Source: a virus
Taxonomy: Duplodnaviria > Caudoviricetes
IMG/VR virus record: IMGVR_UViG_3300035517_000038
Coordinates: 40,924 to 104,923 of that record
Length of the DNA stretch: 64,000 nt
Strand: one strand, 5' to 3'
In this document: in pieces, positions 1,637 through 28,345 of the stretch
Layout of the letters: every line of letters begins with the position of its first letter
Numbering within the stretch: position 1 is the stretch's first letter
Position numbers and translations under genes: made by a program
Notes under the pieces: generated by a model
Databases searched by the model: none
What the model saw: the letters and a program-made list of their open reading frames with translations, nothing else
What the model was told of the DNA's origin: nothing

Positions 1637-4600
1637 ATGTCTAAAATATATTGTTTATTCCCAACTCCTGATATTATCCAGTTGGGTAAATCAGTAGGTA
1701 TTACACAACCTGTAATAGCTGCTAATACAATAGCAGCTTGGCAAACTAAGAATAGTCAGCCTGGTGTACTACCTTCATTAACACAATTGAGTGATTATAT
1801 GAAAGACTCTGCTAAAGAAAGAGAAGCTCTTGCATATGCTTTACCTTTCTATGAAGAGAATACTTCAGAAGATAGTAGGGGAGGCTCTGTAGATATTCAA
1901 GTAGGAGAAAATGGTCTTGTTACAATGTCTCTTGCTAAATTTAAGCCTGGGCAGAATATAGATGACTGGATAGATTCCTTTGGTTTATTTAGTACATCAG
2001 ATAAAATAGCTATTGTAGATGAGGAAAGTGCTTATGCCTATACTTTATTTCTTAATAAAGAAATAGTGCAAAGAGGTTTGGATAAAGGTATTTTATTTAG
2101 AGATGCTAAAAATCCAAACTCTGAATTAAAAGCTATACATAATAGAGCTATTACTAGATTAAATAAATATAATGAAGAGGTTAGAAAAATAGGCATAATA
2201 GCTAAAGATAATAGAACTAAGCAAGTACAAGAAAGAGAATCTTTATTAGATATAGTTAATGGTAAAGGTCAAAACCAAGATGTATCTGACAATAGTAATG
2301 AAACTATAGATATATGGTCTAACCAAGGAAACGCACAAGATTTAAGTAATATGGCCCCTAGGCCTTTTGTTCATGCTTTTAGAGGGCAAGAGATGAAATT
2401 TGATAATGTAGAAAAAGCTTTCCACTTTGCAAAAATGGAGGGACTGCTTTCTACATTGGAGAATCTAATGTCTAGCACTCAAAATGAGGACATAAAGAAA
2501 GCTTGTGCTAAAGCTATTGAAGAAGTTAGAGCAAAGATGGTTAAAATCCGTGATGCTAAAAATGGCTATAAAGCAAGAGAATATGGTAATGAAAGAATTA
2601 CTAGTGAGAATAGAGATGTTAATATCGCTATAACAGATTATTTTGCTCAAGTATGGAATAAAGGCAAGGCTAGAGAGAATCACTTTAATCTAATGCGAGA
2701 ATCTTTTTTGCAAAATCCTACAGCCGCACAAAGATTGGTCAACACTGGTAATGCTAAACTTACTCATGATTTAGGACAAAATTGGGCAGTGCCTTTTGCT
2801 GAAGATATTACAAAAATTAGAGAAGAGCTTAAACAATTATATAAAACACAAAGCCAGCAGCATATAGAAGCTTTAAATAAATTAAGCTCTACAGGGATGG
2901 TAGCTACTGGCACCAAGAGTCCTATTAGAGGAGCTTCTCATGTTAAGGATATTACAGAAAGAAAACAAACTAAATACAGCAGATTAGCAGCTGCTTTTAC
3001 CCCTCAGCAATTAACTGCTAGATATGAAAAAATTGCTAGAGATTTTAGTCAGAAGGTTTCTGATAAAGTAGAAGAACTTATAGCAGAAACAGAGGAGAAG
3101 GTACAAAGTGGAGATATAAATGAAGCTTTGCAAGCAAATGCTACACTTAAAATGCTTAAAGACCCTGTTCAAGGTAGAAGAATAGCTATTGAGAAATTAA
3201 CCTTTAATGCTATATATAAGGAACTCATGCAGGATTATAAGGATATGCTGGAAATGGCTAAAGAAGATAATAATGCAGAGTTAGTTCAAAAATATCAAGA
3301 TATAGTAGATAACTTTGAAGCTCTCTTTGACAATGCTTGTGTTATTATTGAGAAACTTGAGAACCTCAGAATTACTACACAAGATGTTGTTGAGCATACT
3401 GGTAATGAGAAAGTAAATGCAATTGCTGCTGCTATAGAAGAGGCTACTGCAGAAAAACAATTAGAGGAAGATGATAACTCAGATGATGAAAGCGGTAATA
3501 GAGCTACTGGTAATGATGGTTGGTCTTATAAAGCTAAGTTTGTAGACCCTTATGACTCTATCAGTGCTAAGACTAAAGCAGCTCTTACAGACATTAAGAG
3601 AGTTATATTTGATGGAGTAGATGAAGATGGTAATGTAAAAACTACAGAAGTCTATGATGACTTAGGAGAAGTAAGATACTATGACAACACTTACATACAT
3701 GGTGTTCTCCTACATGAGTTATCTGGTATTATCACTCCTTCAGAATATATGATTAGGGATAAAGAAACTGGGGAGGTGTCATTCCCAGCTTTAGAAAAAT
3801 TATCCTCTAAATATCCTTGGGTATCTCAGGTTATTGATAAACTTAAGGCTGATGAAACTCTGGCATCTACTTTCTATAATGACCTTAGAAAAGAGAGAAC
3901 GGACTTTTGGAAACATAAAGTTGTAAAGGTAGCTAGAAAAGATGGGGGTTTTGATTATATATGGCAAACAATGTCCATTAATAATTCTGTAACTCAGGAT
4001 TCTGTAATTGATACTATTCTTCAAAACTTTGACTCTGGTAATGTTTTAACAACTCTGAGTTTATATAATACAACAGGAGAAATAAACACAGAGAATATAG
4101 ATGAAATTCTTAAAATAGCTGCGGCATTAGAAAATGATGCCTCATCTACAGAAGATACAGAAGATTTACTAGAACTTTTAGATACTTTTAAAAATCTTAT
4201 GGCTTCTATAGGAGTAGAAATAGACAATGCTTATGCATATGCTATTATACAGGATAAAGTTCTTTTTCCTGAGGTTATGGAAGCATTTAAGGATTTAATA
4301 AAAGAAGCTAAAGAATGGAAAAAAGGAAAGCATTTCCCGACTACTGCTCTAAAGCTATTTAAAAATTTTACTGATAAATTAGGTTATGTGGAAGATAATG
4401 TACCTGCATTATCTACTAGAGAAGGTGATAAAAGTTTACCAACATATTCTGCCCCTAATTATTTAGAAACTATCTTTAAAAGACTAAAGAGTGATGAAGT
4501 AAGATTATCTACATTAGCAGAAGAATTTATGAAATATGATTTCTTCTACGATAAAGAGAATAAGAAGTGGAAATCAGGTTGGTTAGAAATATTCTCAGGC

Positions 4601-7600
4601 GAAGATAAGACTGTTAATATTAGAGAGGTTATGGCTAATTTGAGCATAATGTCTTTAGATAATATTAATGGTAAAGAGTATGATGATTGGACAGCACCAG
4701 AAATCAAAAGTATGTTCTTCCAGCAATATTTAGCAGCTGGTGATAAATTTGCGTGGTACAATACTCCTATATATTCTGACTCTACTACAGTTAATTTTAT
4801 TAGGATGGTGAAATATACATCAGATAGTAAAGGCACCTTCAAAGAGAAGTTATTACCCAAATTCAATACTCTAGTAAGGCAAGAGTTAGGTAGAATATTG
4901 CAGGTAGAAAAGAGAAAAGCCCTTATAGAAGAGGGTAAGGTGATGGCTATTCAGAATTTTGACAAGAATGGTGATAAATTTTTCTTTTTACCTAAACTCA
5001 ATGACTATAAAGTAGGAGAGGTTAGCTTCCTGGATGCTATAAGAGCAGCTAAAGATGCAAATGATAATGCAAAAGTAGATGCTATTATAAATGAAGCCAT
5101 TATGGAGATAATGGAGGAAGATTTTAAAGAATTTTACACAACTCAAGACATTCATGCTGTAACTGATGTCAATGGTAATATTATTATAAAAGAGGATGGT
5201 AAAGCTCTAGAGAATAGCCTTTATTATATAGCTGTAAAAGAATTAGAATCTAGAAATCTATTACCTAAAGTAGAACCTAAAGCGGTAAACAAGGAAGGAT
5301 TATCAAAGAAGGAGATAGAACAAGCAGAAGAAGCTGCAAAAGAAGAAGCTGAAGAAGAAACAAGAAAACGTATAAGTGCTGCTGTTGATGAACTTATAGA
5401 AGAATATTTCTGGAATAGCTGCTATGCAACCTCTCAGATTATTGAGATTACTGTTACTGACCCTGCGTTCTTTAAGAATGATAATGGTGTAGACTTCCAA
5501 AAGCGCTTTAAGCAAATCTTTGCTGCTGGTACTAAGTTAAATACTCAATCTAGATATGGTAAAACTCATGAATTAACAGTGTATCTTGCAGATGCTATCC
5601 AAACTACTGCTACTATGGGTAACCTTAGAAAAAATTTGGATACTGCTGTTAAAGAAAGAAGAATGACTAGAGAGCAAGCTGATGATATTATTGAAGCAAT
5701 GCTCAGTATAAATGCTACAGATGCTCAGGCTTATAGAAACCTGGAATCTATGAGGTCTCTATTAGATATGATGGGTAAATGGGATGAGGAAACCATGAGT
5801 CCAGCATTTGAAAGACTGAGAGAGGGTACATATACTAAAGAAGATTTTGATATAGTATGGCAAACTATTAAACCGTTTGTATTTGCTCAAATAGGTAAGC
5901 CTGATGGTTTAGGTGGTATGCTGAAAGTTGCTCATCAGAATAAAAACTCTGAGTTTCTTATTCTCTCATTGTTTAATATGATTGGTAACTCCTATAGCAC
6001 ATCGCCTAAGATGAGAGCTATAGACCAGTTTATGCATGAGAATGGTATTGATGTTGTACAATTTGAATCTGCTGTTAAAGCAGGTGGTCAAGGTATTATA
6101 GATATATCACACTCCCCTCAAAAGCTTAAAAAAGCTCTTAAAGATGGTGTTATAGAGTTTAAGAGTGGTAAGGAAAAATACTCATTCAGTATTAACGGTG
6201 CTACTACTTTCGGAGGAAAGAATGGTATCAAGGCTATGATGGATGCTAAACTTGTTAAAGGAGAAATTACACAGGAAGTTTATAATGACTTTATAAAGTA
6301 CTTTGAGCCTTCACAAGTAGAAGTTTATCAGATGCTTAATGCAGCTGCTAAACAAGGTCCTAATATGCAAACTGACCCAAATGCTCCTGGCTATGGTTTA
6401 AATATGGAGGTTGTTCATGCTATTCCTTATGATAACTTTGTAGTACAGCAACCTACACCTGAGCATTTATTTGATACTACTGCTGTTTTTGGCTCTCAGT
6501 TTAGAAATCTTATTACTGCTGACTTACCTGATAATATTTCTATAGAAGTTAATGGTATAAAGATTGAAGGTAAAGATGCTGTATTAAAAACTTTCCAAAA
6601 TGCTATTATTGAAAATTTATTAGATGCCTATCAAGAGGTAACTGATAGATTTGCTACTATAGAGGATTTACAAGAAGCTATATTAAAAACTGTAAAAGGT
6701 AATCCTAAATATGGTAGAGAGTTCTTAGAGGCTATGGAAATTGTAACTGATTCAGAAGGTAGAAAATCCTTTAATCTTCCTATGCATACTCCAGGTATGG
6801 CTACAAAGATGGAGGAGATTCTAAATGCTATGTTTAAAAATGCAATTGCTAAACAAAGTATTAAGGGCGGTAATGCTATCCTTGTTTCTGACTTTGGTTT
6901 TACAAATGAGCTTGAGGTAATAAGAGATGAAGAAACTGGTGCTCTTGTAGAAGTAGAGTGCTATATGCCTTGGTATTCTAAAAAGAAATTTGGTGCATTT
7001 TTAACTAAAAAGACAGACCCTAGAGGTAATATTATAGAAACCCTCGATATAGAGAAACTTGAGAAAATGGCACCTGACCTACTGGAGTTAATAGGTTATC
7101 GTATTCCTACTGAAGGTAAGTATTCAATGGTGCCTTTGAAAATTAAAGGTTTCTTACCTCAATCTCAAGGTTCTGCTATCATGTTACCTGCTGATATTAC
7201 TAAAATCGCAGGTTCGGACTTCGATGTTGACAAACTTTTTATGATGTTCCCTGAGTTTAAATCTTTCTCATATAATAAAGGTAAAGCTCTTAAGGACTAT
7301 AAAAAGTTATTAGGAGCTGATAAATTTAACAAAGCAGCTGCTTCTATAATTACAGAAAATGCTGAAGTTGCTGAAAAAGTAGAGAAAAATTTAGATAATC
7401 TAATGTCTCTTTCTGAAGAAGAATTAGATGCTATAGATTATAAAGACCCTGATTTTAAAAAGTGGTTTAAGGAGCATGAAAAAGAATATGAATATAAGAA
7501 TGAATATGGAGACCCTGCTCCCAGATTAAAGAAGATAAAGGCTAAGACTACGGAAGCTGAAAAGATGAATAAACAACAACGTAATAATATGTTGTTAGAT

Positions 7601-10060
7601 ATTTCAAGAGCCATCCTAAAAGACCCTAAAATATCTGAGCATTTTAATTCTCCTGGTAACTTTGATACTGTTAAAAAGGCTGCAAGAACATCAAGAATTT
7701 TAAATAGTAAGAAGTTGATAGAATCTCTTAAAGAAATGCTGACAGTAAATGATGTAGCACCTACCGAAAGAGAGATGGTAAAATGGTTACATAAAGCAGA
7801 TTTAAAAACTGTTGATGACTTTTTGGAAAAATACACACCTAAAAGAAGCTTACTTAGTCCTAGTACATTTATGTACTTCCATGCTCAAAATATGACTGGT
7901 GGTAAACTCATAGGTATGTATGCTAATAATACTACAATACAAGCAAAAACTCAAGGTAAATATGCTGAATTAAGAGAACAGTATTGCTTCACTATAAATG
8001 GTAGAGATATAGATAGTATCACAAAGCCATATATAACTATGCCTGATGGTACTATAATGCGTATCTCTAAAAACTGTGCAGAGTTTTCAGCAGCCTCTGT
8101 GGATAATGCTAAAGACCCTGTATTAGCAGACTTATTACAAGATACTGAGACAGCTCCTATTACTTCTACTATGCTTAGAATGGGTATGACTATTGATGAA
8201 ATTGGTACTATATTTGCTAATCCTTATGTGCAAATACATCTTATAAATGGTGCAAAATTTGTTAATTCCCTGTATGCACAGGAAATGGTGGCAGGGGAAA
8301 CGTATATGACTGCTACTGGTAAAAGTACATACTACAATACAGAGGATATGCAGACTTCTATAATTAGTTTTAATAGGGGCAATTTAAATTATTCACCGGA
8401 AGAGTTATCAGATGAAGGGCTGGAAGAATTAGGACATTTGTATAATGGCTATAAACTCTTCTTACAAATAAGTAAAGTAGCTCAAACTGTTAAAGATATG
8501 TCTAAAGTGCAAAGAGCAGACTCTCCTAATGGTGCTATACAGAATACTGTAGCAAAAGCTATAATTCAGCAAAAAAGAGTAACAGCTTTTCAATTACTGG
8601 ATAACTTTGAAAAAGAAGCTGTACGTAAAAATAAAAAACTTTTAGACCCTACGCCTGTTGTCGGTTTTATTAATTTACTGCCTGAAAATAATGTAGGAAG
8701 GGCATTAAGCAGTAAAGAAGAGTTGAGAAACAAATTTAGAAACTCAAGTATGCCTATGTTGCAAGCTTTTTATTCTTTAGGTATAGATTTTGGTCTTGCT
8801 AATATTGCTAGATATTATGCTCCAATATCAGGAGGTGCTACATATGCTATAGACTTGTTATTTAAAAATGCTAAAAATTATAAAGTAGGTGAAAAAGTTT
8901 TAGATAGATTCTTAAAACAATCTACTATATATTATCTAAGTAAAACTAAATTTTTTGGTGATGACCCTGAATCAGGACAAACTTACAAAGAAAAAAGAGC
9001 ATATTATCTAAATGAGTACCCTCATGAATTTAAAAAACTAAGACAAGAGCACCCGGAGCTTAATAATAATGAAGCTATAAAAGCTCTATGGGTAAATGAA
9101 AACATTGATGAAGATACTGGTATTCCTATGGGAGCTACTATTGAGATGAGAAATGCATCTAAAAAAACTAAAACCAGCAGAATGATGCTTATGAACGCTT
9201 TTGATGCTTTATTTAATTCTAATGAGAAAACATCCGGAATTAGTGATGCATTAGCTGTTCAAGTAGCTACTGACTTATTTGCATATGCTTACTATAAGTA
9301 TGGTCTTGGTTTTGGTGCTAAATCCTTTGGTAATTTCTTCAGTCCTTTCTTCTATAATCAATTTAGTGACATAGTAAATGATTTAAGATTAATGGATAGA
9401 AATTATGATATGACGGAAGCTTCTAATTACTATTACCAATTTATGGTTCAAAATGCTCCTGATATATTACCTACTTTCCAAGGTGGTATTAATAGTAAAT
9501 TTGTATCAGGTGTTTTAGATTCAAAAGGTGAGGCTATTGAAGGTATGGTTAAAGTACCATTAGGTAAAGTATTTAATAAATACGATGCTAATAGTATAGT
9601 ACACCAGTATATTTGTGTTACAGATAATACTTCAGATGTATATCTATTTTCTGATATGTTAGAGTTAGAAGAAACAGATGGTGCAGGTAACAAGATAAAA
9701 GTTAAATATGCTGCCTATGATAAAATAGGTTCAGTTGAGTCAAGCTCTTTTGTCTATGATGCTAATTCTGACCATAGAAAGTTAGTAGACGATTATGCAG
9801 ATGAGGAACTTAATGCAGGTCTAGAAGATTTTGATTTAGATGAGGTTAGGGAATTAAGAAGAGCAGCAAGAGAAGAATCTGAAGAGTCGGAAGCTCCTGT
9901 GGAAGATTTTGAAAAAGAAGATAAAGACTCTAGAAGACAAAGACTGGAAGATACTGATTTCGGAGATTATTCAGCAGTAGAAGAAGATGATGATGACACA
10001 GCCTCTGAAAATTATGACCCTCAAAAAGGCTTGGAAGCTGCTGGAGAAAAAAAATGTTAA
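1637..10060 (+). CDS. crAss-like virion RNA polymerase (single-chain, double-psi-barrel type) with N-proximal NADAR-like domain
   Basis: Catalytic GSDFDVDKL (DxDxD, nt ~7211-7237), GYRIPTEGKYS, AASVDNAKDP, DFQKRFKQ, NATDAQAY; 2807 aa; NADAR-like motifs at ~aa 225-400; acidic C-terminal tail. Confidence 0.93.
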   Translation: MSKIYCLFPTPDIIQLGKSVGITQPVIAANTIAAWQTKNSQPGVLPSLTQLSDYMKDSAKEREALAYALPFYEENTSEDSRGGSVDIQVGENGLVTMSLAKFKPGQNIDDWIDSFGLFSTSDKIAIVDEESAYAYTLFLNKEIVQRGLDKGILFRDAKNPNSELKAIHNRAITRLNKYNEEVRKIGIIAKDNRTKQVQERESLLDIVNGKGQNQDVSDNSNETIDIWSNQGNAQDLSNMAPRPFVHAFRGQEMKFDNVEKAFHFAKMEGLLSTLENLMSSTQNEDIKKACAKAIEEVRAKMVKIRDAKNGYKAREYGNERITSENRDVNIAITDYFAQVWNKGKARENHFNLMRESFLQNPTAAQRLVNTGNAKLTHDLGQNWAVPFAEDITKIREELKQLYKTQSQQHIEALNKLSSTGMVATGTKSPIRGASHVKDITERKQTKYSRLAAAFTPQQLTARYEKIARDFSQKVSDKVEELIAETEEKVQSGDINEALQANATLKMLKDPVQGRRIAIEKLTFNAIYKELMQDYKDMLEMAKEDNNAELVQKYQDIVDNFEALFDNACVIIEKLENLRITTQDVVEHTGNEKVNAIAAAIEEATAEKQLEEDDNSDDESGNRATGNDGWSYKAKFVDPYDSISAKTKAALTDIKRVIFDGVDEDGNVKTTEVYDDLGEVRYYDNTYIHGVLLHELSGIITPSEYMIRDKETGEVSFPALEKLSSKYPWVSQVIDKLKADETLASTFYNDLRKERTDFWKHKVVKVARKDGGFDYIWQTMSINNSVTQDSVIDTILQNFDSGNVLTTLSLYNTTGEINTENIDEILKIAAALENDASSTEDTEDLLELLDTFKNLMASIGVEIDNAYAYAIIQDKVLFPEVMEAFKDLIKEAKEWKKGKHFPTTALKLFKNFTDKLGYVEDNVPALSTREGDKSLPTYSAPNYLETIFKRLKSDEVRLSTLAEEFMKYDFFYDKENKKWKSGWLEIFSGEDKTVNIREVMANLSIMSLDNINGKEYDDWTAPEIKSMFFQQYLAAGDKFAWYNTPIYSDSTTVNFIRMVKYTSDSKGTFKEKLLPKFNTLVRQELGRILQVEKRKALIEEGKVMAIQNFDKNGDKFFFLPKLNDYKVGEVSFLDAIRAAKDANDNAKVDAIINEAIMEIMEEDFKEFYTTQDIHAVTDVNGNIIIKEDGKALENSLYYIAVKELESRNLLPKVEPKAVNKEGLSKKEIEQAEEAAKEEAEEETRKRISAAVDELIEEYFWNSCYATSQIIEITVTDPAFFKNDNGVDFQKRFKQIFAAGTKLNTQSRYGKTHELTVYLADAIQTTATMGNLRKNLDTAVKERRMTREQADDIIEAMLSINATDAQAYRNLESMRSLLDMMGKWDEETMSPAFERLREGTYTKEDFDIVWQTIKPFVFAQIGKPDGLGGMLKVAHQNKNSEFLILSLFNMIGNSYSTSPKMRAIDQFMHENGIDVVQFESAVKAGGQGIIDISHSPQKLKKALKDGVIEFKSGKEKYSFSINGATTFGGKNGIKAMMDAKLVKGEITQEVYNDFIKYFEPSQVEVYQMLNAAAKQGPNMQTDPNAPGYGLNMEVVHAIPYDNFVVQQPTPEHLFDTTAVFGSQFRNLITADLPDNISIEVNGIKIEGKDAVLKTFQNAIIENLLDAYQEVTDRFATIEDLQEAILKTVKGNPKYGREFLEAMEIVTDSEGRKSFNLPMHTPGMATKMEEILNAMFKNAIAKQSIKGGNAILVSDFGFTNELEVIRDEETGALVEVECYMPWYSKKKFGAFLTKKTDPRGNIIETLDIEKLEKMAPDLLELIGYRIPTEGKYSMVPLKIKGFLPQSQGSAIMLPADITKIAGSDFDVDKLFMMFPEFKSFSYNKGKALKDYKKLLGADKFNKAAASIITENAEVAEKVEKNLDNLMSLSEEELDAIDYKDPDFKKWFKEHEKEYEYKNEYGDPAPRLKKIKAKTTEAEKMNKQQRNNMLLDISRAILKDPKISEHFNSPGNFDTVKKAARTSRILNSKKLIESLKEMLTVNDVAPTEREMVKWLHKADLKTVDDFLEKYTPKRSLLSPSTFMYFHAQNMTGGKLIGMYANNTTIQAKTQGKYAELREQYCFTINGRDIDSITKPYITMPDGTIMRISKNCAEFSAASVDNAKDPVLADLLQDTETAPITSTMLRMGMTIDEIGTIFANPYVQIHLINGAKFVNSLYAQEMVAGETYMTATGKSTYYNTEDMQTSIISFNRGNLNYSPEELSDEGLEELGHLYNGYKLFLQISKVAQTVKDMSKVQRADSPNGAIQNTVAKAIIQQKRVTAFQLLDNFEKEAVRKNKKLLDPTPVVGFINLLPENNVGRALSSKEELRNKFRNSSMPMLQAFYSLGIDFGLANIARYYAPISGGATYAIDLLFKNAKNYKVGEKVLDRFLKQSTIYYLSKTKFFGDDPESGQTYKEKRAYYLNEYPHEFKKLRQEHPELNNNEAIKALWVNENIDEDTGIPMGATIEMRNASKKTKTSRMMLMNAFDALFNSNEKTSGISDALAVQVATDLFAYAYYKYGLGFGAKSFGNFFSPFFYNQFSDIVNDLRLMDRNYDMTEASNYYYQFMVQNAPDILPTFQGGINSKFVSGVLDSKGEAIEGMVKVPLGKVFNKYDANSIVHQYICVTDNTSDVYLFSDMLELEETDGAGNKIKVKYAAYDKIGSVESSSFVYDANSDHRKLVDDYADEELNAGLEDFDLDEVRELRRAAREESEESEAPVEDFEKEDKDSRRQRLEDTDFGDYSAVEEDDDDTASENYDPQKGLEAAGEKKC

Positions 10061-10075
10061 TAAAAAATTTAATAT

Positions 10076-13000
10076 ATGGCATCATGTACTTATGCCCCTA
10101 AAAAGGGCGCAGATTTATTCTATGCTCTAAAAAAAGAGCTTGGATATAATAAAGCCTGGGATGTAATTGGTATTATTAATAACCCTAAATTTAAGCAGGA
10201 TTTTGCGGATACTCTCACTTTAGATAGTGAGGGTATCCCTACCCTTGCTTCTGTAATGGGTAATAAATATATACAAGGATTTCTAGGTATAGATAACACT
10301 GCTAAAATGCTACAACGAGAATACTCAGCTGTAGAAGATACTATGAGTAATTATAAATCAGCATTAGAACAGGCTAAATTGTTTAATACTACAAGTGAGC
10401 ATAAGAATAATTTCACAGCAGTAGTAAAAAATAAAGATGGTAAACTTAGAGTTACTATCTTACCTAGAACTGAAACTGCTTTAGAAGAGTTTAAAGACCA
10501 ATATGCTGCACATAGCCTTAATAGGCAATTAGAGACCATTCTAGAGCCTGTAGGTATTACAGTGGGAATGTTATCAGAAGCAGAAATAAAGGCTGGTAGA
10601 ACGGGCGTAATTAACTTTGCAGCTGCTAATAGAATGGCTCAAGATACTATATCTATGATTAGAGTAGCTAATAATAGACAAGGTTTTGAAGCTCTTAGTG
10701 AAGAATATTCACACTTACTTGTAGCTGCCTTTAAAGATACTCCTCTATTAGAGAGGTTGATTAATGCTCTTGCAAAGGATGAGGAAGCCCTTAGAGTTAT
10801 TCTTGGTGATGAATATGCAGATACTGTAAATTTCCAAGATGGAGATATGGCTCTTGTGGCTGAAGAAGCTGTAGGTCAATTATTGAGAGAGCACTTTGCT
10901 CAAAAAGTTGGGAGTAAGTCAGCTTTAATTAACCGCTTTAGAGATTTTGTACACTCTAAATATAAGGGTATGGATGAATCAGATGTAGCCCATGCTATAG
11001 TAGAGTCTGAATCTGTGCTCAGTAGTTTAGTACAAAAAATGCTTGAAGGTACTCTAAAAGTTGACCCTGCTAAAATAGAAACCAGAATGGTGCAGCTTAA
11101 TTCTTTAGCTGATAGATTGGACAGGAATATGGAACTACTAAAACATATGAAAGTTCAAGAGGTAAAACAGGCTCAATTATCAGGTACTAGAGGTACTAGT
11201 GATACATTGCATAAAATTAATGTAGCTTTAAATAATTCTACAGATATTGCAGCACAAGCTGTAGGATTTACTGAATATAGTATGGAGGCTCTTAAGGCTT
11301 TTACAAAGGCTCAGGGTTTATTAAATTCTATTGATAGAGGAATATCAACACAAGATACATTTAGAGATTTAAGACAGGTAGAGGCTACTATTGGTAAATA
11401 CGGTAAATTTATAAAAGGGCTTAATGATACAATAAATGAGGAAAAAACATTAAGACAAGAGCAATTTGAAGTAGAAATAGATGATGAGGGTAATCCTGTT
11501 TATACTCCATTAGACCCTGAAGATGTGTCTATGTTTGCTGAACCTATTCCAATTCTTCAGGATGATGGTACTTATGAATATATAAATATGTATGAGGTAC
11601 TCTCAGCTCTTAATGATATTTCACAAAGAATTGCTTCAGAATTTGAAGCAAAGTCTTTAAGCTCTTTTGCTAGTTTCTTAGAACCTGTATTAGGTACAGA
11701 GGTTACTACAGAAATTGGTAAAAATGCTGGTACTGGAGTATTGGTTACCGATTTATTAAAAAGAGCTTCTAATGATATATCATTCTTTGATAGATGGTTG
11801 GACTCTATGGGACAGTCTAGAGACCCTATTCTTAATGCTTTTGATGAAATAGTCAAAAGGCAAAATGAGGAAGCTAAGGATAAAGCACAAGGTCTTATTA
11901 GAAGATTACAGAAGATAATGCTCGATGCTAAAGATAAAGGTATCACAGATTTTGATTGGATGTTTGAGAAACTCTCTGATGGTAGCCTTAGTGGTGATTA
12001 TATTAGTGAGATTAATAGAAATCAATACCATAAAGAGAGATTAGAGATGGAAGCTGCTCTAGAGGCTAAATATGGCAGAAATCCTAAAGGCGAAGAATTA
12101 GAAGCTAAAAAGAGAGAAAGAGAAGCCTGGCATTTAGAACATTCTAAAAAGTCATTTGGTAGATGGCGTATTAATGAACGTAAGTATGAAAATGCTGCTT
12201 ATAAGGCACTGTCTAAAGACCAAAGAGAGATTCTTGATAGATTATTAGCTATCAAAGAAATTGCTGATAAATTATTACCTGCAGCTAAAGTAGATAAGCT
12301 TAAAGCTGTACAAATGCGTAGAATGGGTAATAGTAGAGTATTAGATTCATTAGCACATCCTAGTAGAATTTGGGAAAATATTAAGGAAGCGGTTGCTGAA
12401 GAATTATTAGATAGAAACGATGATAACCTTACTTTTGGTGAAAACAATAGAAGAGGTTTAAAAGATTTCTCAGGTAAGGAATATATGGAATTACCTGCTC
12501 TTTATACTAATAGGTTAGAAAATCCTAATGACCTTAATAGAGATGTAATAGGCTCTCTTATGGCTTATGTAGCTATGGCTTGCAAATATGAAGCTATGAA
12601 TGAAGTAGTAGATGCCTTAGAAGTTGGTAGAAGTATAGTAAATAAAAGAGAAGTACAGAAAACTGTAGGTAATCAACCTATGGTGGAGAAATTAAGTAAT
12701 GGTTTTGATACAGTGACTGCAAAAATCTTACAAGATGGAAAGACAAATATGCAAGCCAAACTTGATGACTTTATGGCTTCACAAGTGTATAATAGATTAT
12801 TAAAAGATTATGGTACATTTGATGTATTTGGTCAGAAGATTAATAAGAATAAAGCAGTTTCATTACTTCTTAAATATTCTTCATTAGCTCAATTAGGGTT
12901 CAATGCTCTTGCTAACTTAGCCAATGTAACTCAAGGTGTGGCTATGCAGAATATAGAAGCTGCTGCAGGAGAGTTTTTCAATGCTAAAGAGTTAGCTAAA

Positions 13001-14116
13001 GCTGATGCTGCATATGGTAGAATGATTACAGGCTATCTTTCAGAGTTAGGTAGCAGAGTCAAAACTAACAAACTGTGGTTATTTGACCAAGCTATTGACT
13101 TTAAAGGTGACTACTTCAAGGATATGAAGCACCAAGATATGCGCAAGTTTGTACAAAGAGTATTGGGCAAAGAGCTTGCGTTTATAGGTCAAGAGGCTGG
13201 TGACCATTGGTTATATAACAGAACAGCTATAGCAATGGCTATGAGAACTAAGGTTAATGTTCCTGGTAAAGGGGTAATGTCATTGTGGGATGCTCTAGAG
13301 TATGAATCTCCTAGTGGTATTAATGATTCTAGAATTAAAGAATGTAGACTACCTCAAGGTACTACTTTTGTAAAAACAGGTGAAACTGCTAGTCTTAAGA
13401 GATTTGGTAGAGAAGTTCTAGAAATAAACCAAGAACTTTTTGGTATCTATAATGAAGAAGATGCCAATGCTGCTAATAGAGTTATAGGTGGTAGATTGGT
13501 AATGCAGTATAGAAAATACATGAGACCTCTGTGGAATAAGAGATTTGGAGAATCTAGAAAATCTCTTATAACTGGTAGAGAGTACGAGGGTTTCTATCGT
13601 TCACTGTTTAAATTTGCATCAGCAGTAGCAAAAGAGAAAAGTTGGAAAAATAACTCTTTCATGTTAAATGCTACTGAACATCAAAAGAGGAATTTAAGAA
13701 GAGCAGTTATGGATATTTTACAATGGGCAGTTATGGCAGCATTAGCTAATTTCTTAGAATGGCCTGATGATGATGATAATTATATTTTCCAATTGACAGA
13801 ATATCTAGTTAAAAGATTAAACAGAGAATTAGGTATGTTTGCTTTATCTCCTATAATGTTCCAAGAGTGGTACAACACTATAACAGCCCCTGCAGCAACT
13901 TTATCTGTTGTAAAACAAGTTGGTATATTTGTAGGTTCATTAGTTAATCCTGTTAGCTGGATGGATGAAATAGAACAAGGTAGATATAAAGGTATGACTC
14001 AAGTAGGAAAAGCAGCGTATCTGTTACCTATTCCCTATTTATCTTACTACAGACAATGGGATAAATTCTATAATAGACTTGATGAAATGTCAGATTACTA
14101 TACTAGGTCTAGATAA
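10076..14116 (+). CDS. large virion cargo/ejection protein of the crAss RNAP locus
   Basis: 1346 aa directly downstream of vRNAP; degenerate zincin-like EEYSH...AEEAVG; helical body with hydrophobic C-terminal segments. Confidence 0.7.
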   Translation: MASCTYAPKKGADLFYALKKELGYNKAWDVIGIINNPKFKQDFADTLTLDSEGIPTLASVMGNKYIQGFLGIDNTAKMLQREYSAVEDTMSNYKSALEQAKLFNTTSEHKNNFTAVVKNKDGKLRVTILPRTETALEEFKDQYAAHSLNRQLETILEPVGITVGMLSEAEIKAGRTGVINFAAANRMAQDTISMIRVANNRQGFEALSEEYSHLLVAAFKDTPLLERLINALAKDEEALRVILGDEYADTVNFQDGDMALVAEEAVGQLLREHFAQKVGSKSALINRFRDFVHSKYKGMDESDVAHAIVESESVLSSLVQKMLEGTLKVDPAKIETRMVQLNSLADRLDRNMELLKHMKVQEVKQAQLSGTRGTSDTLHKINVALNNSTDIAAQAVGFTEYSMEALKAFTKAQGLLNSIDRGISTQDTFRDLRQVEATIGKYGKFIKGLNDTINEEKTLRQEQFEVEIDDEGNPVYTPLDPEDVSMFAEPIPILQDDGTYEYINMYEVLSALNDISQRIASEFEAKSLSSFASFLEPVLGTEVTTEIGKNAGTGVLVTDLLKRASNDISFFDRWLDSMGQSRDPILNAFDEIVKRQNEEAKDKAQGLIRRLQKIMLDAKDKGITDFDWMFEKLSDGSLSGDYISEINRNQYHKERLEMEAALEAKYGRNPKGEELEAKKREREAWHLEHSKKSFGRWRINERKYENAAYKALSKDQREILDRLLAIKEIADKLLPAAKVDKLKAVQMRRMGNSRVLDSLAHPSRIWENIKEAVAEELLDRNDDNLTFGENNRRGLKDFSGKEYMELPALYTNRLENPNDLNRDVIGSLMAYVAMACKYEAMNEVVDALEVGRSIVNKREVQKTVGNQPMVEKLSNGFDTVTAKILQDGKTNMQAKLDDFMASQVYNRLLKDYGTFDVFGQKINKNKAVSLLLKYSSLAQLGFNALANLANVTQGVAMQNIEAAAGEFFNAKELAKADAAYGRMITGYLSELGSRVKTNKLWLFDQAIDFKGDYFKDMKHQDMRKFVQRVLGKELAFIGQEAGDHWLYNRTAIAMAMRTKVNVPGKGVMSLWDALEYESPSGINDSRIKECRLPQGTTFVKTGETASLKRFGREVLEINQELFGIYNEEDANAANRVIGGRLVMQYRKYMRPLWNKRFGESRKSLITGREYEGFYRSLFKFASAVAKEKSWKNNSFMLNATEHQKRNLRRAVMDILQWAVMAALANFLEWPDDDDNYIFQLTEYLVKRLNRELGMFALSPIMFQEWYNTITAPAATLSVVKQVGIFVGSLVNPVSWMDEIEQGRYKGMTQVGKAAYLLPIPYLSYYRQWDKFYNRLDEMSDYYTRSR

Positions 14117-14130
14117 TTAAATAGGTTCAA

Positions 14131-14170
14131 TAAAAAGGGAGGCACCAAACGGTGTCTCCCTTATTTTTTT
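14131..14170. terminator. bidirectional intrinsic terminator between convergent units
   Basis: A-run, stem aagggaggcacc-aaac-ggtgtctccctt, T-run; lies between convergent stops at 14116 and 14170. Confidence 0.9.
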
Positions 14171-17100
14171 TACATTCTACACTTAAGGAAAGTTTCTTTC
14201 TCTAATAGAGTCATCTTTTCAAAATCTTCTATAGTCATACCTCTTTCCTTAAGATAATCCATAGATTCTCTAGCTTGAGCATTGAGTTTAGCATGATTGT
14301 AACTTTCTAATTTTTCTTTGAAAGCACTTCTCTCAGCTATTTCTGCTTTCTTTGCATCAAGCATATTCTGAAGTTGTACTCTTCTTTGTAAGAGTTTTGT
14401 ACTTTCCTTATTCATAGCAATACCTAATTTATTTACAGATGTCCATATCTCATACCTACCTCTACACTCATCTACTTGAGTTATATCTTTATATTCCTCA
14501 GGTATAGCATTTTCAGCAGCATCAGGTGTTAAGAATCCATCTCTATAAATAACATAGCCTTTTCTAAGTTTGGCTTTAGGGTCTCTTTTGAGTTTCTCAT
14601 AAGCAGCTCTCAATCTATTGTTGCTTTCTTTTATTTTATCTCTTGTAGAAGATATTTCATTCTCTATATCTTTAATCTCTTGTTCTAATGCTTCTTCTTC
14701 ACTCATGGACCTTCTAAGAGTTTGTTCTCTACTCTGTTGATTTCTATTTATAGTTATAGCTTTAGAATCATATATAATATGATGGTCGGCATTACTAAAA
14801 CCAGAATGGTGCATAGCCCCTACATAACCGCCTTTAGCTACTAATAATTTAGTAACATCTGCTTGAGCTTTTCCAACATTAGAACCTGCAGAGCCTTTAT
14901 CTAAATATTCTATAGATTGTAAACCCTCAAGTATTCTAATCTTGTCCATGGTAGTTTCTGCAGTATTATAAAGATTATCAAAAATATCTTGAAGCTCTTT
15001 CGGTGTCATATTTTCACCCTTAGTACCTAACAGAGATTTACCATTAACTCTTGGCTCATTACCAGAAAGTGTCATATGAGCTATAACTCTTTGATATTGC
15101 TCACTATTCTTTATTTTAGGTAGTAAAGAATATTTTATACTATCTAAAATTGACAAAGTTTCTGCATCAGGGGCAGTATCTAATTGTAAAAATTTACCAT
15201 TAGCATTTATACTAATACTGTAAGTATTACCACCATGCAAAGATTTTAATAAACTTTCTGCAACTGTTACAGCTTCATCAATATTAGTAAAGAACGCCTC
15301 AGTTTCTTTATTAGCTTCTACAAATTTATTATATTTTTCAGAAAGTTGTCTAGCTAAGTTATTTAACTGTATTGTTTCTTTATTTTCTACAATTTTACCT
15401 TTGCTATATACACCTTCACTAAAAGAACTTTTAATAGCTTTTATCTCTGCTTTAAGTTTATCTGCATTAGTTATAAGTCTTCTGATAGTACCTAAAATAC
15501 CCTTTGTTTTCTGAATACTAGCTAACTTATATTGTAAACTTTCTAAACTATCAATTCTCGAAGATAACCTTTCAACTAAATCAACAAATTCTTTAAAACT
15601 TTGAGTATCCTGCTGGAAAAATTTAGTCAAACGTTCAAAAAGTCTTGTATTCTTTTCTCCAAGATTCTGCCCTAATTTGATAGTAGCTGAGAATGTATTT
15701 AAAGCATCTACCATATCAGCTACAGATAAATTAGAGCCAGAACTTTCAAAAAGAGTGAAAGCTTTTGGTAAATACTCTCTTAATCTAGTAGCCAATGCTC
15801 TAATCCTGTACATCTGCGCTTCCACTTTACTACCAGTAAAATAAAAACCTGACGTATATGCAGTATTACCCTCACCTGTAAACAAGAAATCTGTACTAAA
15901 CTCATCTATAGCAAAAGCTCCTGTACCATGATAAGTATTAATAGTATTAGTAGCTTTACTCTTATTAGCAAACTTACCTTTTCTAATATTTCTGTAGAGT
16001 TTATTAAGTTGAGCCTCTTTACCAAATAAAGTTTTAACAAACATCTTAAGTTTACCCCAAAGTTTTCTAAAACCTTTTTGATTCTCCAGTTGCTCATAGT
16101 TCTGCATATACCTTCTAAAGCCCTCTGCAAGCTCTTCCTCAAGCTCTAATTCAGACTTCTGACCAAATACCCTAGCAGCTTCTTCATAAAGGTCTGAAAG
16201 CTCTCTATCGCTTAATAAGGTTTGGGATACATAGTGGAAAGCCTCATGATAAGCAGTACCCCTACTAGAGTTTTTAGCAAGATACACAACACCATCTTTA
16301 AACAATCCCCATACTTTATCTCCATTAGCAAGAGTTGATAATTGTGTTACACTCTCCACTAATCTAAGAGCATCTTCATGAGCTAATTGAGGGAGCATTT
16401 GTTGTACTCTTGCAACCTCTGCTTCTATATCAGTACCTTCATAGGCTTCATCAGAAGACTCTCTCCTGAGTTTTGAAGATTTTTCATAAGCCTCTCTTGC
16501 TTTCTTTTGAATATCCTCCTCAGACATACTGCTATTAATAGTAGCATCATATGTAGCAAAGAATCTATTCTTCATAGTATTATTGAGTTTAGAAACAGCA
16601 ATAACTATATCTTGAGGAACTTTATAGAAAGTTAACTTTCTAGTAGCATTTATCTTACCTCTAAGACTCTTAAGTGCTTCATTATAAGCATCTTGAGTAT
16701 CATCTTTCTTAGCTTCTGCTGCTTTCGCTTTCTCTTTCTCTGCTTTCTGCTTAGCTCTTTCAGCTGCAATATCCATAGAGAAATCAAAATCATCAGCAGA
16801 AAGAACTTCACCACCATCATCATCTGTAGCAGCTTCATCTGCTGCAGGAGTAGTAGTCTTTAACTCTGTAGCAGCTTTCTCTCTGCTGGCTACTACAGTA
16901 GCATATGCAGAGTTTACAGAGTCTATAATATCTTCATCATACTTAATCTTGGTTACATCTATATTAAAATGTTCAGCGAGCTTATCATATAAAGCATCTG
17001 TAAATTCAGTACCTTCTAAGTTTTCTAAACCTTTAGATAATTCATCTACAACATTAACAAAATTAGGGTCATTAAATATAGTATTTCTGACTGATAAAGT

Positions 17101-20100
17101 ATGACTAAAGCTATTAAATTCATCTGCACTATTGCTATCTCTAGGTTCTTCTTTAACATATTTAAGAGAAACTTGAGCTTCTGAAAATCCTTCAGCTGTA
17201 CCTGCATTTACATCCACAATTATAGCACCACCGTCTATAGTATAAATAGCTACATAATTACCACTAACACCAGCAACAGTATCAGAGAACTCACTATCAC
17301 CTCTAGGAGATTTAATAGTAATAGTTACTACAGAATCTTTAGTTAGCTTAGAAGCATTATCCGCAGTAATAGCAGAACCCGAAGGTATTACATTATTAGA
17401 GTTTTTCTTATTTTCTTGTCTCTTTTTAGCCTCATCTATATACCTTTGAAGCATCTCTTTATATTTAGCTTTATCAGTTTGTTTCTGTAAAACTTTAAGA
17501 GCTTTATGAACTTCAGGCATCTTGCTATATAAATACTGCTCTACTTTACCAGTGGTAGCATCTGAGAGTTTATTCCAATTAGAGAGAAGTTCAAAGATTG
17601 CTTCATTATTAGATTTTATCAGATTAACAGCTTTAGTTTTTTGGAGGTTTTTAGCATTTTCTCTAATATTTTTAATAGTTTCTCTATAAGCTTTTAAATC
17701 ACTCTCTTTAAGATTCTCTAATTCAGTTTTTAATACTGCAGGTATTATAGAGTCATTATTAAGAAGCTCTTCATCAGTGATATTAATATCATCTAACCTA
17801 GCTAATTTTATAGCAGCTTCTAGTAATCTTGTAGTATTAGAGGTTGATGTTGTAGTGGTGGTAGTAGTTTCCTTTTCTACATTAAACTCATCAAAGAGTT
17901 TATTTTTTGTAGCAGGGTCTACTTTAAGATATTGTATAGCAATATTTGTAGCATCTTGCACAGTGAGAGTACCATTTTGAACAGCTTGCTGTACTTGAGC
18001 CATGAACTCTATAAGATTTACATTAGCCTTAGTCTTATTACCGTTGTTGTTAATAGCTCTCACTAATTCCTCTCTAGTAGAGTTAGCTCTAAGTATAGTT
18101 TGTCTTATTCTGAGAACAAGGGATTTAGCTAATGCATAATTTAAATCTCCGCCATCATTTGAAGAATCCTCATTAAGAACAAACAAACCTCCAGGAACTT
18201 CACCTTCTTTAAGTAATCCAGCTTTTCTAGCAATTTCATTACCTATTTGTTTAGCTTCTACTACTTTTTTACCACCATTAAGATACTCAGCACCTACTCT
18301 ACCCTCTGCATTACTTTTGTCAATGCCACTGTCTAAACCTTCAGTATCAATAGCATCTGTAGGACTGCTAATAGGAGTACCAAAAGCTTCAGAAGGTATT
18401 TTATCAGCTTCTTGTCTAGCAGCATCTACAGCAGCTCCTAAGCCTTCTGTATTAGCTTCAGCAGGAGCACTTTCTACTTTAGGTGCTACAAACTTCTCTT
18501 CTTTAGTATTAAATCTACCCCAAGGAGTATCATATTCTTTTTGACCATTTAAACCATGCTGAATACCATAAGCCTTAGCCCTTAATATTGCATGATTAGG
18601 TTTTGTAGGGTCTAAGAGTAAGTAATCATTACCAACTGCATCCCAGACATAATAATCACCATTCTCTATCTTTACTCTTGTATTAGCGTCTACATCAACA
18701 TGAGTAGCAGTGCTGGTTCTTTGATTAGGATTAGTACCTATAGTCTTGGGGGCTTTGGCTTTCTTCTCTTGACCATCTATAATAGGATTGAGAACAAACC
18801 AATCATCTACTGTGTGATTAGCTCCAGGTCTCATATTAGTGAAAGCTACTTCACCAATCATTCTATTATAATTGACCTCTTGACCATTTACTGTGATAGT
18901 ATTATTAATATGCTCTCTTGCTACTCTAATAGAAGGGTTGTGCTTTTTTATAGCCTCCATTATAATATCAGCTCTGGTGTTAATACTAGCACTTTCTAAA
19001 CTAGCCCATGCTATTTTTTCACCATTTCTAATACCTAAGAGTTTACCATCTTTTGAGAATGTTATAATACCCTTATCATGATTAAGATTTAATAAAGCTC
19101 TGAGTCTATCTTGAGCTTCATGAATATCCTTTTTATCTGAATTTTGACTTAAAGTAGCCATATATTCGGCAACTTCTCTTACTGCTTTATAGATAAGAGA
19201 GCCTTCAGAAATACCTAACCATCTAGGCATAGAGAAAGGTACAGGCATATAAGCTCTTAAGTCACTAGAAGTAGGAAGTAACAGATAGGGAGTACCTGCA
19301 GGAGCAGTACTACTTTCAGAAGTTCTCATTATTGTAGACTGCAGTTTAGGGTCTCTAGACTTTTTAGAGTTAGCAACAACAACAGGAGATTGACCATTAG
19401 AAGTTGAGAAACCAATCATGAAATCATTCTCAGTAGATTGACCCTGAGAATTGGTATTATCCATAATCTGATTTAAAGACACTGACCTTTTATTTGTTGT
19501 AAAATCAGGTTTACCTACCATAATTTTAGCTATGGTAGATTCTCCACCTACAGGAACTAAATCGCCTTCTACAGATTCTTGCTTTTCATTATATTCTTTT
19601 ACTGCTTTTCTTGTAAACTCTGCTAATCCTGGGTATCTATCTGTTTCTATAGGAAGGTCACCGATAACTTCACCACTACTATTTACAATAAGAATTACAG
19701 GAACACCTGCAGATTTAGATAACTCTTTACTTATAGCAAAAGTAACCTTAGGTCCTTTAGCTCTATCATAAAAACCAGTTTTAGCTCTATCAAATACACC
19801 TACTTTCTCTAAAAACTCATATACTGCTTTATAGATAGGTTTCTTCTCATTAGAGTTATCAAGGGTCATCCAATAAGGTGTTCTATCACCACCTCTCTTT
19901 CTATGTATTGGGTATTCAGTAGTAGCAGGTCTCCAATAATTTAAAGTACCATTAGCAGCTTTAAGAGGTAAAGCTCCAGTAGCAGCATCTTCATCAGCTT
20001 GTGCTTGAGAGTTAGTTATCTTATCATCATTATGTATTTTATCTATTTCCTCACCTAATAATTCTTCAGGAATAGATTCAACACCAGTGACTTCTTCTTG

Positions 20101-28240: not shown

Positions 28241-28258
28241 ACTAATAAATATTTTATA

Positions 28259-28290
28259 CAAAGATAAGTAATTAAATTCTGATTCACAAT
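28259..28290 (-). promoter_or_regulatory. Bacteroidota-type promoter for cargo operon
   Basis: Minus strand ATTG (28290-28287), N20, TATCTTTG (28266-28259); shares TTACTTATCTTTGTA with the vRNAP promoter. Confidence 0.8.
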
Positions 28291-28303
28291 AAACTAAAGG
28301 ATA

Positions 28304-28345
28304 AAATAATAGGAGCATAAGAAAACTCCTATGCTCCTTATTATT
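28304..28345 (-). terminator. intrinsic terminator after muzzle gene
   Basis: Inverted repeat aggagcata...tatgctcct with A/T-rich extensions immediately after the stop at 28345. Confidence 0.75.

Follow-up and report, generated by a model that had tools for sequence, protein, structure and literature searches.

A diverged NADAR domain inside a crAss-type virion RNA polymerase and its candidate role against host ADP-ribosylation

Why does the giant virion RNA polymerase of a phage carry, close to its N-terminus, a domain resembling the NADAR proteins, and what might such a domain do there? The question is raised by IMG/VR record IMGVR_UViG_3300035517_000038 (Duplodnaviria; Caudoviricetes), a complete viral genome of 104,923 bp with direct terminal repeats, of which bases 40924-104923 form the 64,000-nucleotide stretch analysed here (the window; guanine-plus-cytosine content about 33%), and all coordinates below are positions in that window. 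An original prediction, made from the letters alone, had proposed a YbiA-type NADAR domain fused into the virion RNA polymerase and acting as a pre-packaged counter to DarT-type ADP-ribosylation of DNA. Judged by sequence and by a predicted structure, the 2807-residue protein P0001 does harbor a genuine, unusually diverged and independently folding NADAR domain at amino acids (aa) 212-404, and the fusion to the polymerase was confirmed; the YbiA assignment did not hold, and the pre-packaged role can reasonably be inferred. The features on which this depends are as follows.

1637..10060, + strand: P0001, crAss-type virion RNA polymerase, 2807 aa (from the list of open reading frames (ORFs), tblastn and phmmer)
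2270..2848, + strand: NADAR domain, aa 212-404, between linkers rich in Q, S, T and N (from a family profile, the AlphaFold2 model and structural matches)
7217..7231, + strand: DFDVD, aa 1861-1865, catalytic metal-binding motif of the two-barrel polymerase (from alignment to DFDID of 6VR4)

A NADAR domain within a polymerase chain

The kinship of the domain with NADAR proteins was recovered through its relatives. A phmmer search of 5.8 billion proteins aligned it with the 162-aa protein P0002, which itself carries the Pfam NADAR domain (E 7.6e-18, 35% identity), and a search of 1.84 billion representatives with a two-sequence profile returned 728 matches, 408 of them with E < 1e-10; the free-standing relatives scored above the Pfam NADAR cut-off in 10 of 10 cases, at 47-78 bits against 35.1. 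A family hidden Markov model (HMM) was built from 128 members, with P0001 and its sister P0003 left out, and scored 108.5 bits on aa 212-404 of P0001 (E 1.9e-35 for a search of this one protein); this score and the match to P0002 lie well outside chance. The family profile matched E. coli YbiA (2B3W, E 4e-18) and the P. nicotianae NADAR (8BAU, E 7e-13) in the PDB. The PHROGs search of the domain returned one match, phrog_1017, with function not assigned.

The structural comparisons agreed. AlphaFold2 run with a 25-row alignment produced a model with a mean predicted local distance difference test score (pLDDT) of 91.6 and a predicted template modelling score (pTM) of 0.87; a single-sequence model (pLDDT 61) was not used. 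VIA-align superposed the model on 8BAU with Z 15.8 and a root-mean-square deviation of 2.0 Å over 144 residues, on 2B3W with Z 14.1 and on 8BAT with Z 8.1, so that the top three were all NADAR structures, the next, unrelated fold reaching 5.7; Foldseek likewise ranked 2B3W and 8BAU first with probability 1.0, and in a viral structure library the best match was part of a giant protein from the crAss-like phage cr272_1 (template modelling score 0.81), followed by many viral NADARs. The predicted model has the NADAR three-dimensional fold, and the catalytic Glu and Lys, E43/K50 in 8BAU and E88/K95 in the E. coli C7 NADAR, have their equivalents in P0001; structure prediction with active-site alignment, the check named in advance, returned the fold together with a retained catalytic E259. 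Among the BFVD matches to the domain model were NADAR-like folds within replicase polyproteins of RNA viruses (yellow head virus ORF1b and pp1ab, and the RNA-dependent RNA polymerase of Ingleside virus), and phages may not be alone in linking NADAR to a viral polymerase polyprotein.

The carrier protein was identified by homology. Used as a tblastn query, P0001 matched 100 phage records, nearly all crAss-like, and its aa 381-2654 aligned with crAss001 gp50, annotated 'putative RNA polymerase' (E 3e-89); phmmer against the PDB gave 6VR4, the virion polymerase gp66 of phi14:2, as the sole match (E 7e-23), with GSDFDVDKLF (aa 1859-1868) aligned to the catalytic GSDFDIDKMY. The DFDxD motif lies in the part of P0001 that corresponds by homology to the double-psi beta-barrel of gp66, and the gene has a conserved neighborhood with two further giant virion-protein genes. 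Megablast of the polymerase gene against phage records gave no match. By these alignments P0001 is the ortholog of crAss001 gp50 and phi14:2 gp66, that is, a crAss-type virion RNA polymerase. In phi14:2, gp66 is packed in the virion, enters the cell together with the DNA and transcribes early genes, and every Asp of its DFDID is essential (bioRxiv 10.1101/2020.03.07.982082). Since P0001 is homologous to a protein that is packed and translocated, its delivery with the DNA is expected, and it is most likely packed in the phage particle and enters the host with the genome.

Motifs, active site and subtype

The motifs named in the original prediction were all recovered in frame in P0001. The interval 2305-2840 was correct as a region and wrong in its start: with the ORF running from 1637, the domain frame begins at 2306 (codon 224), nucleotides 2306-2839 encode aa 224-401, and the coordinates as first given miss the frame by one base. 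The motifs and insertions are listed below.

aa 236-244: LSNMAPRPF
2408..2434, + strand: VEKAFHFAK, aa 258-266, with Glu259 and Lys266, equivalent to E43/K50 of the P. nicotianae NADAR
2456..2518, + strand: first insertion, aa 274-294, lengthening the helical hairpin after the E..K helix (gaps in 51 to 120 of 130 members, by column)
aa 313-317: AREYG
2594..2629, + strand: second insertion, aa 320-331, 12 residues immediately past the G317 loop (columns gapped in 110-123 of the 130 members)
W340
aa 352-361: LMRESFLQNP
aa 367-377: LVNTGNAKLTH
2753..2788, + strand: AKLTHDLGQNWA, last strand, with His377 (E125 of 8BAU), Gly380 (D130, lost) and Trp383 (W133), mapped by extending the 8BAU alignment without gaps
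W383 and F387
aa 391-398: ITKIREEL

The helical insert that had been noticed is real and consists of two insertions relative to the family, at aa 274-294 and aa 320-331; in the AlphaFold model, helices at model residues 46-68 and 72-93 form a long hairpin extended by the insertions. The degeneracy of the D..WG motif was likewise upheld, the family pattern T-H-T-Q-D-x-K-W-G reading T-H-D-L-G-Q-N-W-A in P0001, where D380 is replaced by G and the trailing G by A and where W383 is kept.

The residues that matter for ADP-ribose binding have been described for 8BAU, with E43 and K50 in the first helix, K75, G78, R79, Y84 and W89 around the ADP-ribose, and E125, D130 and W133 on the last strand; the loop equivalent to that of G317 contacts the ADP-ribose phosphates (PMC11543638). 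They were mapped onto P0001 through the printed 8BAU alignment and the 130-member family alignment.

E43 of 8BAU: E259, kept
K50 of 8BAU: K266, kept
K75 of 8BAU: R314, conservative change
G78 of 8BAU: G317, kept
R79 of 8BAU: N318, lost
Y84 of 8BAU: Y335, kept
W89 of 8BAU: W340, kept
E125 of 8BAU: H377, His as in phage NADARs
D130 of 8BAU: G380, lost
W133 of 8BAU: W383, kept

Eight of the ten ADP-ribose contact positions are therefore compatible (E259, K266, R314, G317, Y335, W340, H377 and W383), and E259 and K266 have the same seven-residue spacing as E43 and K50. The V, E and K of VEKAFHFAK are invariant across the 130 family members, His is present at position 377 in 129/130, D or E at position 380 in 119/130 and Trp at position 383 in 125/130. 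The positions that are invariant in the other members are all retained in P0001, comprising LSN, R242, V258-E259, K266, G317, S356, L367, T370, H377, F387 and R395.

The subtype of the domain is defined by its last strand. Where 8BAU has E125, NADARs of the YbiA type have Glu, DarT1-associated NADARs and the BC4488 type have Asp, and phage NADARs have His (PMC11543638, PMC11125620), and the last-strand His is the signature reported for phage NADARs such as T4 gp30.3/AdfN (PMC11543638, PMC11125620, PMC11825919). In P0001 the polar last-strand catalytic residue is His377, two residues past the strand Leu; the Glu that defines the YbiA subfamily is absent and that subfamily is ruled out. The pattern of His377 with E...K is the same as in T4 gp30.3, and the domain therefore carries, as read from the alignment, the phage-type signature and not that of YbiA. 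The HMMER alignment instead pairs the family His with a YbiA His and treats the YbiA Glu as an insertion; the ungapped register, with His377 in place of Glu, is preferred because it agrees with the 8BAU numbering and with the literature. Pfam Phage_30_3 (PF08010, cut-off 36 bits) was also tried, and it did not match the domain, the relatives scoring 19-32 bits.

The cargo slot and what the domain may do

The position of the domain within the chain was examined in the 120 closest polymerase homologs. When aa 1-620 were compared with them by blastp, most aligned over aa 1-147 and then again from aa 443-448, beyond which the polymerase body is 30-48% identical to the homologs regardless of what lies between. 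The two flanking parts are as follows.

1637..2077, + strand: conserved N-terminal module, aa 1-147, including conserved Cys6 (from blastp of aa 1-620 against the 120 homologs)
2963..3450, + strand: start of the polymerase body, from about aa 443, where homolog alignments resume and the variable slot ends

The part of the chain flanked by these two (aa 148-442, 2078-2962) is a variable cargo slot, in the homologs about 40 residues long at the shortest and about 850 at the longest. NADAR occupies it in 9/120; in homologs such as P0179, P0237, P0253, P0257 and P0004 the slot was found to hold cpYpsA (PF12694), DUF7831 (PF25176), an SF1 (superfamily 1) helicase, NADAR or almost nothing, with cpYpsA beside NADAR in P0253 and SF1 helicase, cpYpsA and NADAR together in P0004. 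P0001 has two identifiable activities, NADAR and polymerase, in one chain, to which relatives add cpYpsA, helicase, ADP-ribosyltransferase (ART) or DUF7831 at this same place. As a separate observation, terminal cysteines recur in the polymerase family, within the first 10 residues of 107/120 homologs (P0154-P0271) and the last 5 residues of 96/120, in proteins with little Cys overall (0.35%); those of P0001 are C6 and C2807 (1637-1666 and 10043-10057).

The association with polymerases extends to the clade as a whole. This NADAR clade occurs on 135 IMG/VR contigs, and 64 of the 77 NADAR-bearing IMG/VR ORFs also hold the polymerase core; in these 64 the usual place of the NADAR is about 1000 residues past DFDxD, on its C-terminal side. 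A core could be detected in the proteins of 62 of 130 representative domains, the domain preceding the core in 21 and following it in 41, and most of the giant proteins in the top 150 representative matches hold the core. The nearest IMG/VR polymerase relatives (45-49% identity) are without this NADAR, and a sample of 49 records drawn from the 78 highest-ranking polymerase matches contained it once. This NADAR clade lives mainly inside crAss-type giant polymerases; hundreds of metagenomic giant polymerase proteins carry it, and the pattern is not a one-off.

For P0001 we put forward, at about an even chance, that the NADAR in the slot is delivered ahead with the polymerase and removes ADP-ribose that a host DarT1-like enzyme has attached to guanine. 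Held between flexible linkers, apart from the N-terminal module and the polymerase body, the domain would arrive with the polymerase and the DNA before any phage gene is expressed, would strip the ADP-ribose set by host DarT1-like transferases on guanine of the phage nucleic acid, and would be placed by the polymerase tether on the very template in use for early transcription. We infer this anti-DarT role, and with it catalytic activity, substrate, action in cis and packaging in this phage, from the analogy with AdfN and from the delivery of gp66: the phage NADARs AdfN(T4), AdfN(Bas32) and AdfN(Bas60) counter DarTG1, and the T4 type has the same His substitution (PMC11825919). If correct, a polymerase-borne NADAR would sit at the site where ADP-ribosylated DNA blocks transcription, before phage gene expression. 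A broader version, in which the clade has co-evolved with the polymerases as a transcription-coupled de-ADP-ribosylase acting in cis on the template or nascent RNA, with early transcription surviving DarT-like defence as the outcome, and in which the N-terminal slot is a hot-swappable cassette for counter-defence modules (NADAR, cpYpsA, ART, helicase), appears to us rather doubtful, if worth stating. The variable slot points to further counter-defence candidates, such as cpYpsA and DUF7831, and the clade offers a testable handle on the way in which crAss-like phages, which are among the most abundant gut viruses, protect the first step of infection.

Several observations weigh against an active anti-DarT enzyme, and most of them also favor the alternative that the hydrolase has been lost and the domain kept as an ADP-ribose- or nucleic-acid-binding module or as a structural spacer, which we consider unlikely. 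Pfam NADAR (PF08719, gathering score 35.1 bits) does not match the domain, P0001 or the whole phage genome, although the link to relatives that do pass is strong (E 7.6e-18; 108.5 bits), and with the domain as a single-sequence query neither Pfam, NCBIfam nor the PDB yielded a NADAR. At the 42 positions with at least 90% conservation, P0001 has the consensus residue in 31, against a family median of 41; among the 130 relatives only its sister P0003 deviates further, and the two share a very long branch on the domain tree, inside a clade of other N-terminal-slot NADARs (support 0.91). Non-conservative changes occur at family-specific sites (E232N, N233A, Q263H, M349H, Q379L and D380G), the equivalents of two phosphate contacts are lost (N318 for R79 and G380 for D130), 12 residues are inserted behind the G317 loop, and P0003 has Tyr at the position of His377 (H377Y). 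The two sisters are 81% identical in the domain and about 91% in the rest, a difference compatible with relaxed constraint and also with an arms race. Because of this divergence, hydrolase activity of this particular copy cannot be assumed, and its loss or change is a live alternative. Two further points concern mechanism and not sequence: on its own, T4 AdfN gives no rescue from DarT1 toxicity (PMC11125620, PMC11825919), and if, as we assume, few polymerase copies are present per particle, genome-wide clean-up by the packaged enzyme without help would seem unlikely. Against decay stand the retention of every position invariant in other members, including E259, K266 and H377, the high-confidence prediction of the fold (pLDDT 91.6), and the placement of the differences between P0001 and P0003, which fall at less conserved family positions (mean conservation 0.51 where they differ and 0.65 where they agree) and for that reason suggest that some purifying selection on the domain continues.

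Other readings keep the enzyme and change its target or its partner. A different substrate, such as ADP-ribosylated RNA, including nascent early transcripts modified by RNA-targeting transferases, other ADP-ribosylated bases or ADP-ribose-derived immune signals, would still make the domain a delivered counter-defence, directed at something other than DarT1, and is in our estimation distinctly unlikely. It gains from the tethering of the domain to an RNA polymerase, from the occupation of the same slot in relatives by cpYpsA, of the SLOG family, alone or beside NADAR, and from the possibility that the His variant changes specificity (PMC11825919); NADARs are also reported to reverse cytidine ADP-ribosylation, and they appear in a study of enzymes by which RNA ADP-ribosylation is reversed (PMC12945103, PMC11833690). 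The only function demonstrated to date for phage NADARs is nevertheless directed against guanine ADP-ribosylation of DNA by DarT1 (PMC11825919), the evidence of this analysis points to no particular substrate, and the degradation of signals is speculation. Alternatively, the NADAR could serve as eraser or immunity partner for a transferase of the phage itself, an ART-like module in the neighboring, presumably ejected 3260-aa protein, whose effect on phage nucleic acid it would reverse or restrain, in the manner of the DarT-NADAR and YarT-NADAR pairs; NADARs are indeed reported as antitoxins of ARTs (PMC11543638, PMC11125620), and this we regard as very improbable. The 3260-aa ORF has a partial ART-PolyVal (PF18760) match at 15802-15936 on the - strand (YHGTG ... 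SGFYFTG), with 19.6 bits and E 8.5e-5 in a search of its own genome, covering profile positions 9-46 of 140 (Pfam E 0.021). Its nearest Atlas cluster carries ART-PolyVal (lead 0.88), and in the record of the closest relative, G006, some 136 inserted residues interrupt a significant ART-PolyVal; an ART divided in this way in the 3260-aa ORF is plausible and unproven. In G026 (IMGVR_UViG_3300021256_000181), ART-PolyVal and NADAR stand in tandem in the same polymerase ORF; there, at 15330-17288 on the - strand, they score 72.7 and 232 bits within a polymerase ORF of 3212 aa. The match in the 3260-aa ORF is however under the cut-off and spans only the first third of the profile, and ART-PolyVal is predicted to modify host proteins and not bases (PMC5512222). 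Nor do the two domains co-occur: ART-PolyVal was found in 11/49 NADAR-bearing and 14/48 NADAR-free polymerase-bearing records, and in 6/19 of both samples among genomes at least 90% complete, and a general writer/eraser coupling with ART-PolyVal is thereby ruled out.

Gene neighborhood and comparison with known systems

The order of the three giant genes, 2807 aa and 1346 aa on the same strand and 3260 aa on the opposite one, resembles that of crAss001 gp50, gp49 and gp47. The two neighbors of the polymerase gene are given below.

10076..14116, + strand: 1346-aa ORF, positional counterpart of crAss001 gp49 ('putative RNA-polymerase subunit'), gene order as in crAss001 gp50-gp49-(gp48)-gp47 and in cr126_1
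14170..23952, - strand: 3260-aa ORF, positional counterpart of crAss001 gp47 by gene order

The 1346-aa ORF has no family match of its own in Pfam or PHROGs. Upstream of the polymerase, at 165-1016 on the + strand, lies a 283-aa ORF whose C-terminal half is thymidylate-synthase-like (phrog_85, E 6.6e-16), in the place held by a flavin-dependent thymidylate synthase in crAss001 and cr126_1. Large ORFs of 2552, 656, 796 and 1346 aa (55027-62685, -; 23958-28318, -; 10076-14116, +) are without PHROG match, and the 1500-aa ORF at 28345..32847 is the sole one among these large ORFs to match, as a 'virion structural protein' (phrog_28748). This phage is distant from characterised crAss-like genomes.

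Among characterised relatives, YbiA (2B3W) and the P. nicotianae NADAR (8BAU) share with the domain the fold (Z 14.1 and 15.8), the E, the K, the G and both Trp residues, and differ from it in that the last-strand Glu of YbiA is His here, the Asp of D..WG is lost, two insertions are present and the identity is 19-20%. The polymerases phi14:2 gp66 (6VR4) and crAss001 gp50 share the polymerase body, the DFDxD and the gene neighborhood; no NADAR was found in crAss001 gp50, nor is one described in the paper on gp66, whose domains outside the core lack identifiable homologs (bioRxiv 10.1101/2020.03.07.982082). The polyvalent proteins of phages and conjugative elements in Iyer et al. (2017) are large, multi-domain proteins that enter with the DNA and bear enzymatic conflict domains, and P0001 would resemble them if it is delivered; that survey describes ART fused to N4-like virion polymerases and never mentions NADAR (PMC5512222), whereas the carrier here is a two-barrel crAss-type polymerase and not of the N4 type.

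The same fusion exists in cr126_1 (Kolpuevirus hominis, GenBank MT774391 / NC_055884), whose 2402-aa ortholog has NADAR at aa 37-209, a DFDxD motif and a 'RNA-polymerase subunit' gene next after the polymerase. It is labelled 'DUF1768 domain-containing protein' in GenBank, so that the fusion itself has a precedent in public annotation, and no paper on a fusion of NADAR/DUF1768/YbiA with a crAss-like polymerase was found in the literature. The NADAR of cr126_1 is near consensus at 197 bits, against 108 bits and two insertions here, and the two polymerases are about 23% identical. Phage NADARs were shown to act against DarTG1 in 2025, only as free-standing gene products (PMC11825919), and the closest functional comparison is with AdfN/T4 gp30.3, which shares the NADAR fold, the seven-residue E...K, the last-strand His (LKH in T4, LTH here) and phage origin, and in which LEGFLQGCK and LKH are seen. 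The members of the present family form a clade separate from Phage_30_3, as their scores on that model lie under its cut-off, and AdfN is a small free-standing protein with its own gene (152 aa in T4 gp30.3), whereas the NADAR described here is a domain of a 2807-aa protein.

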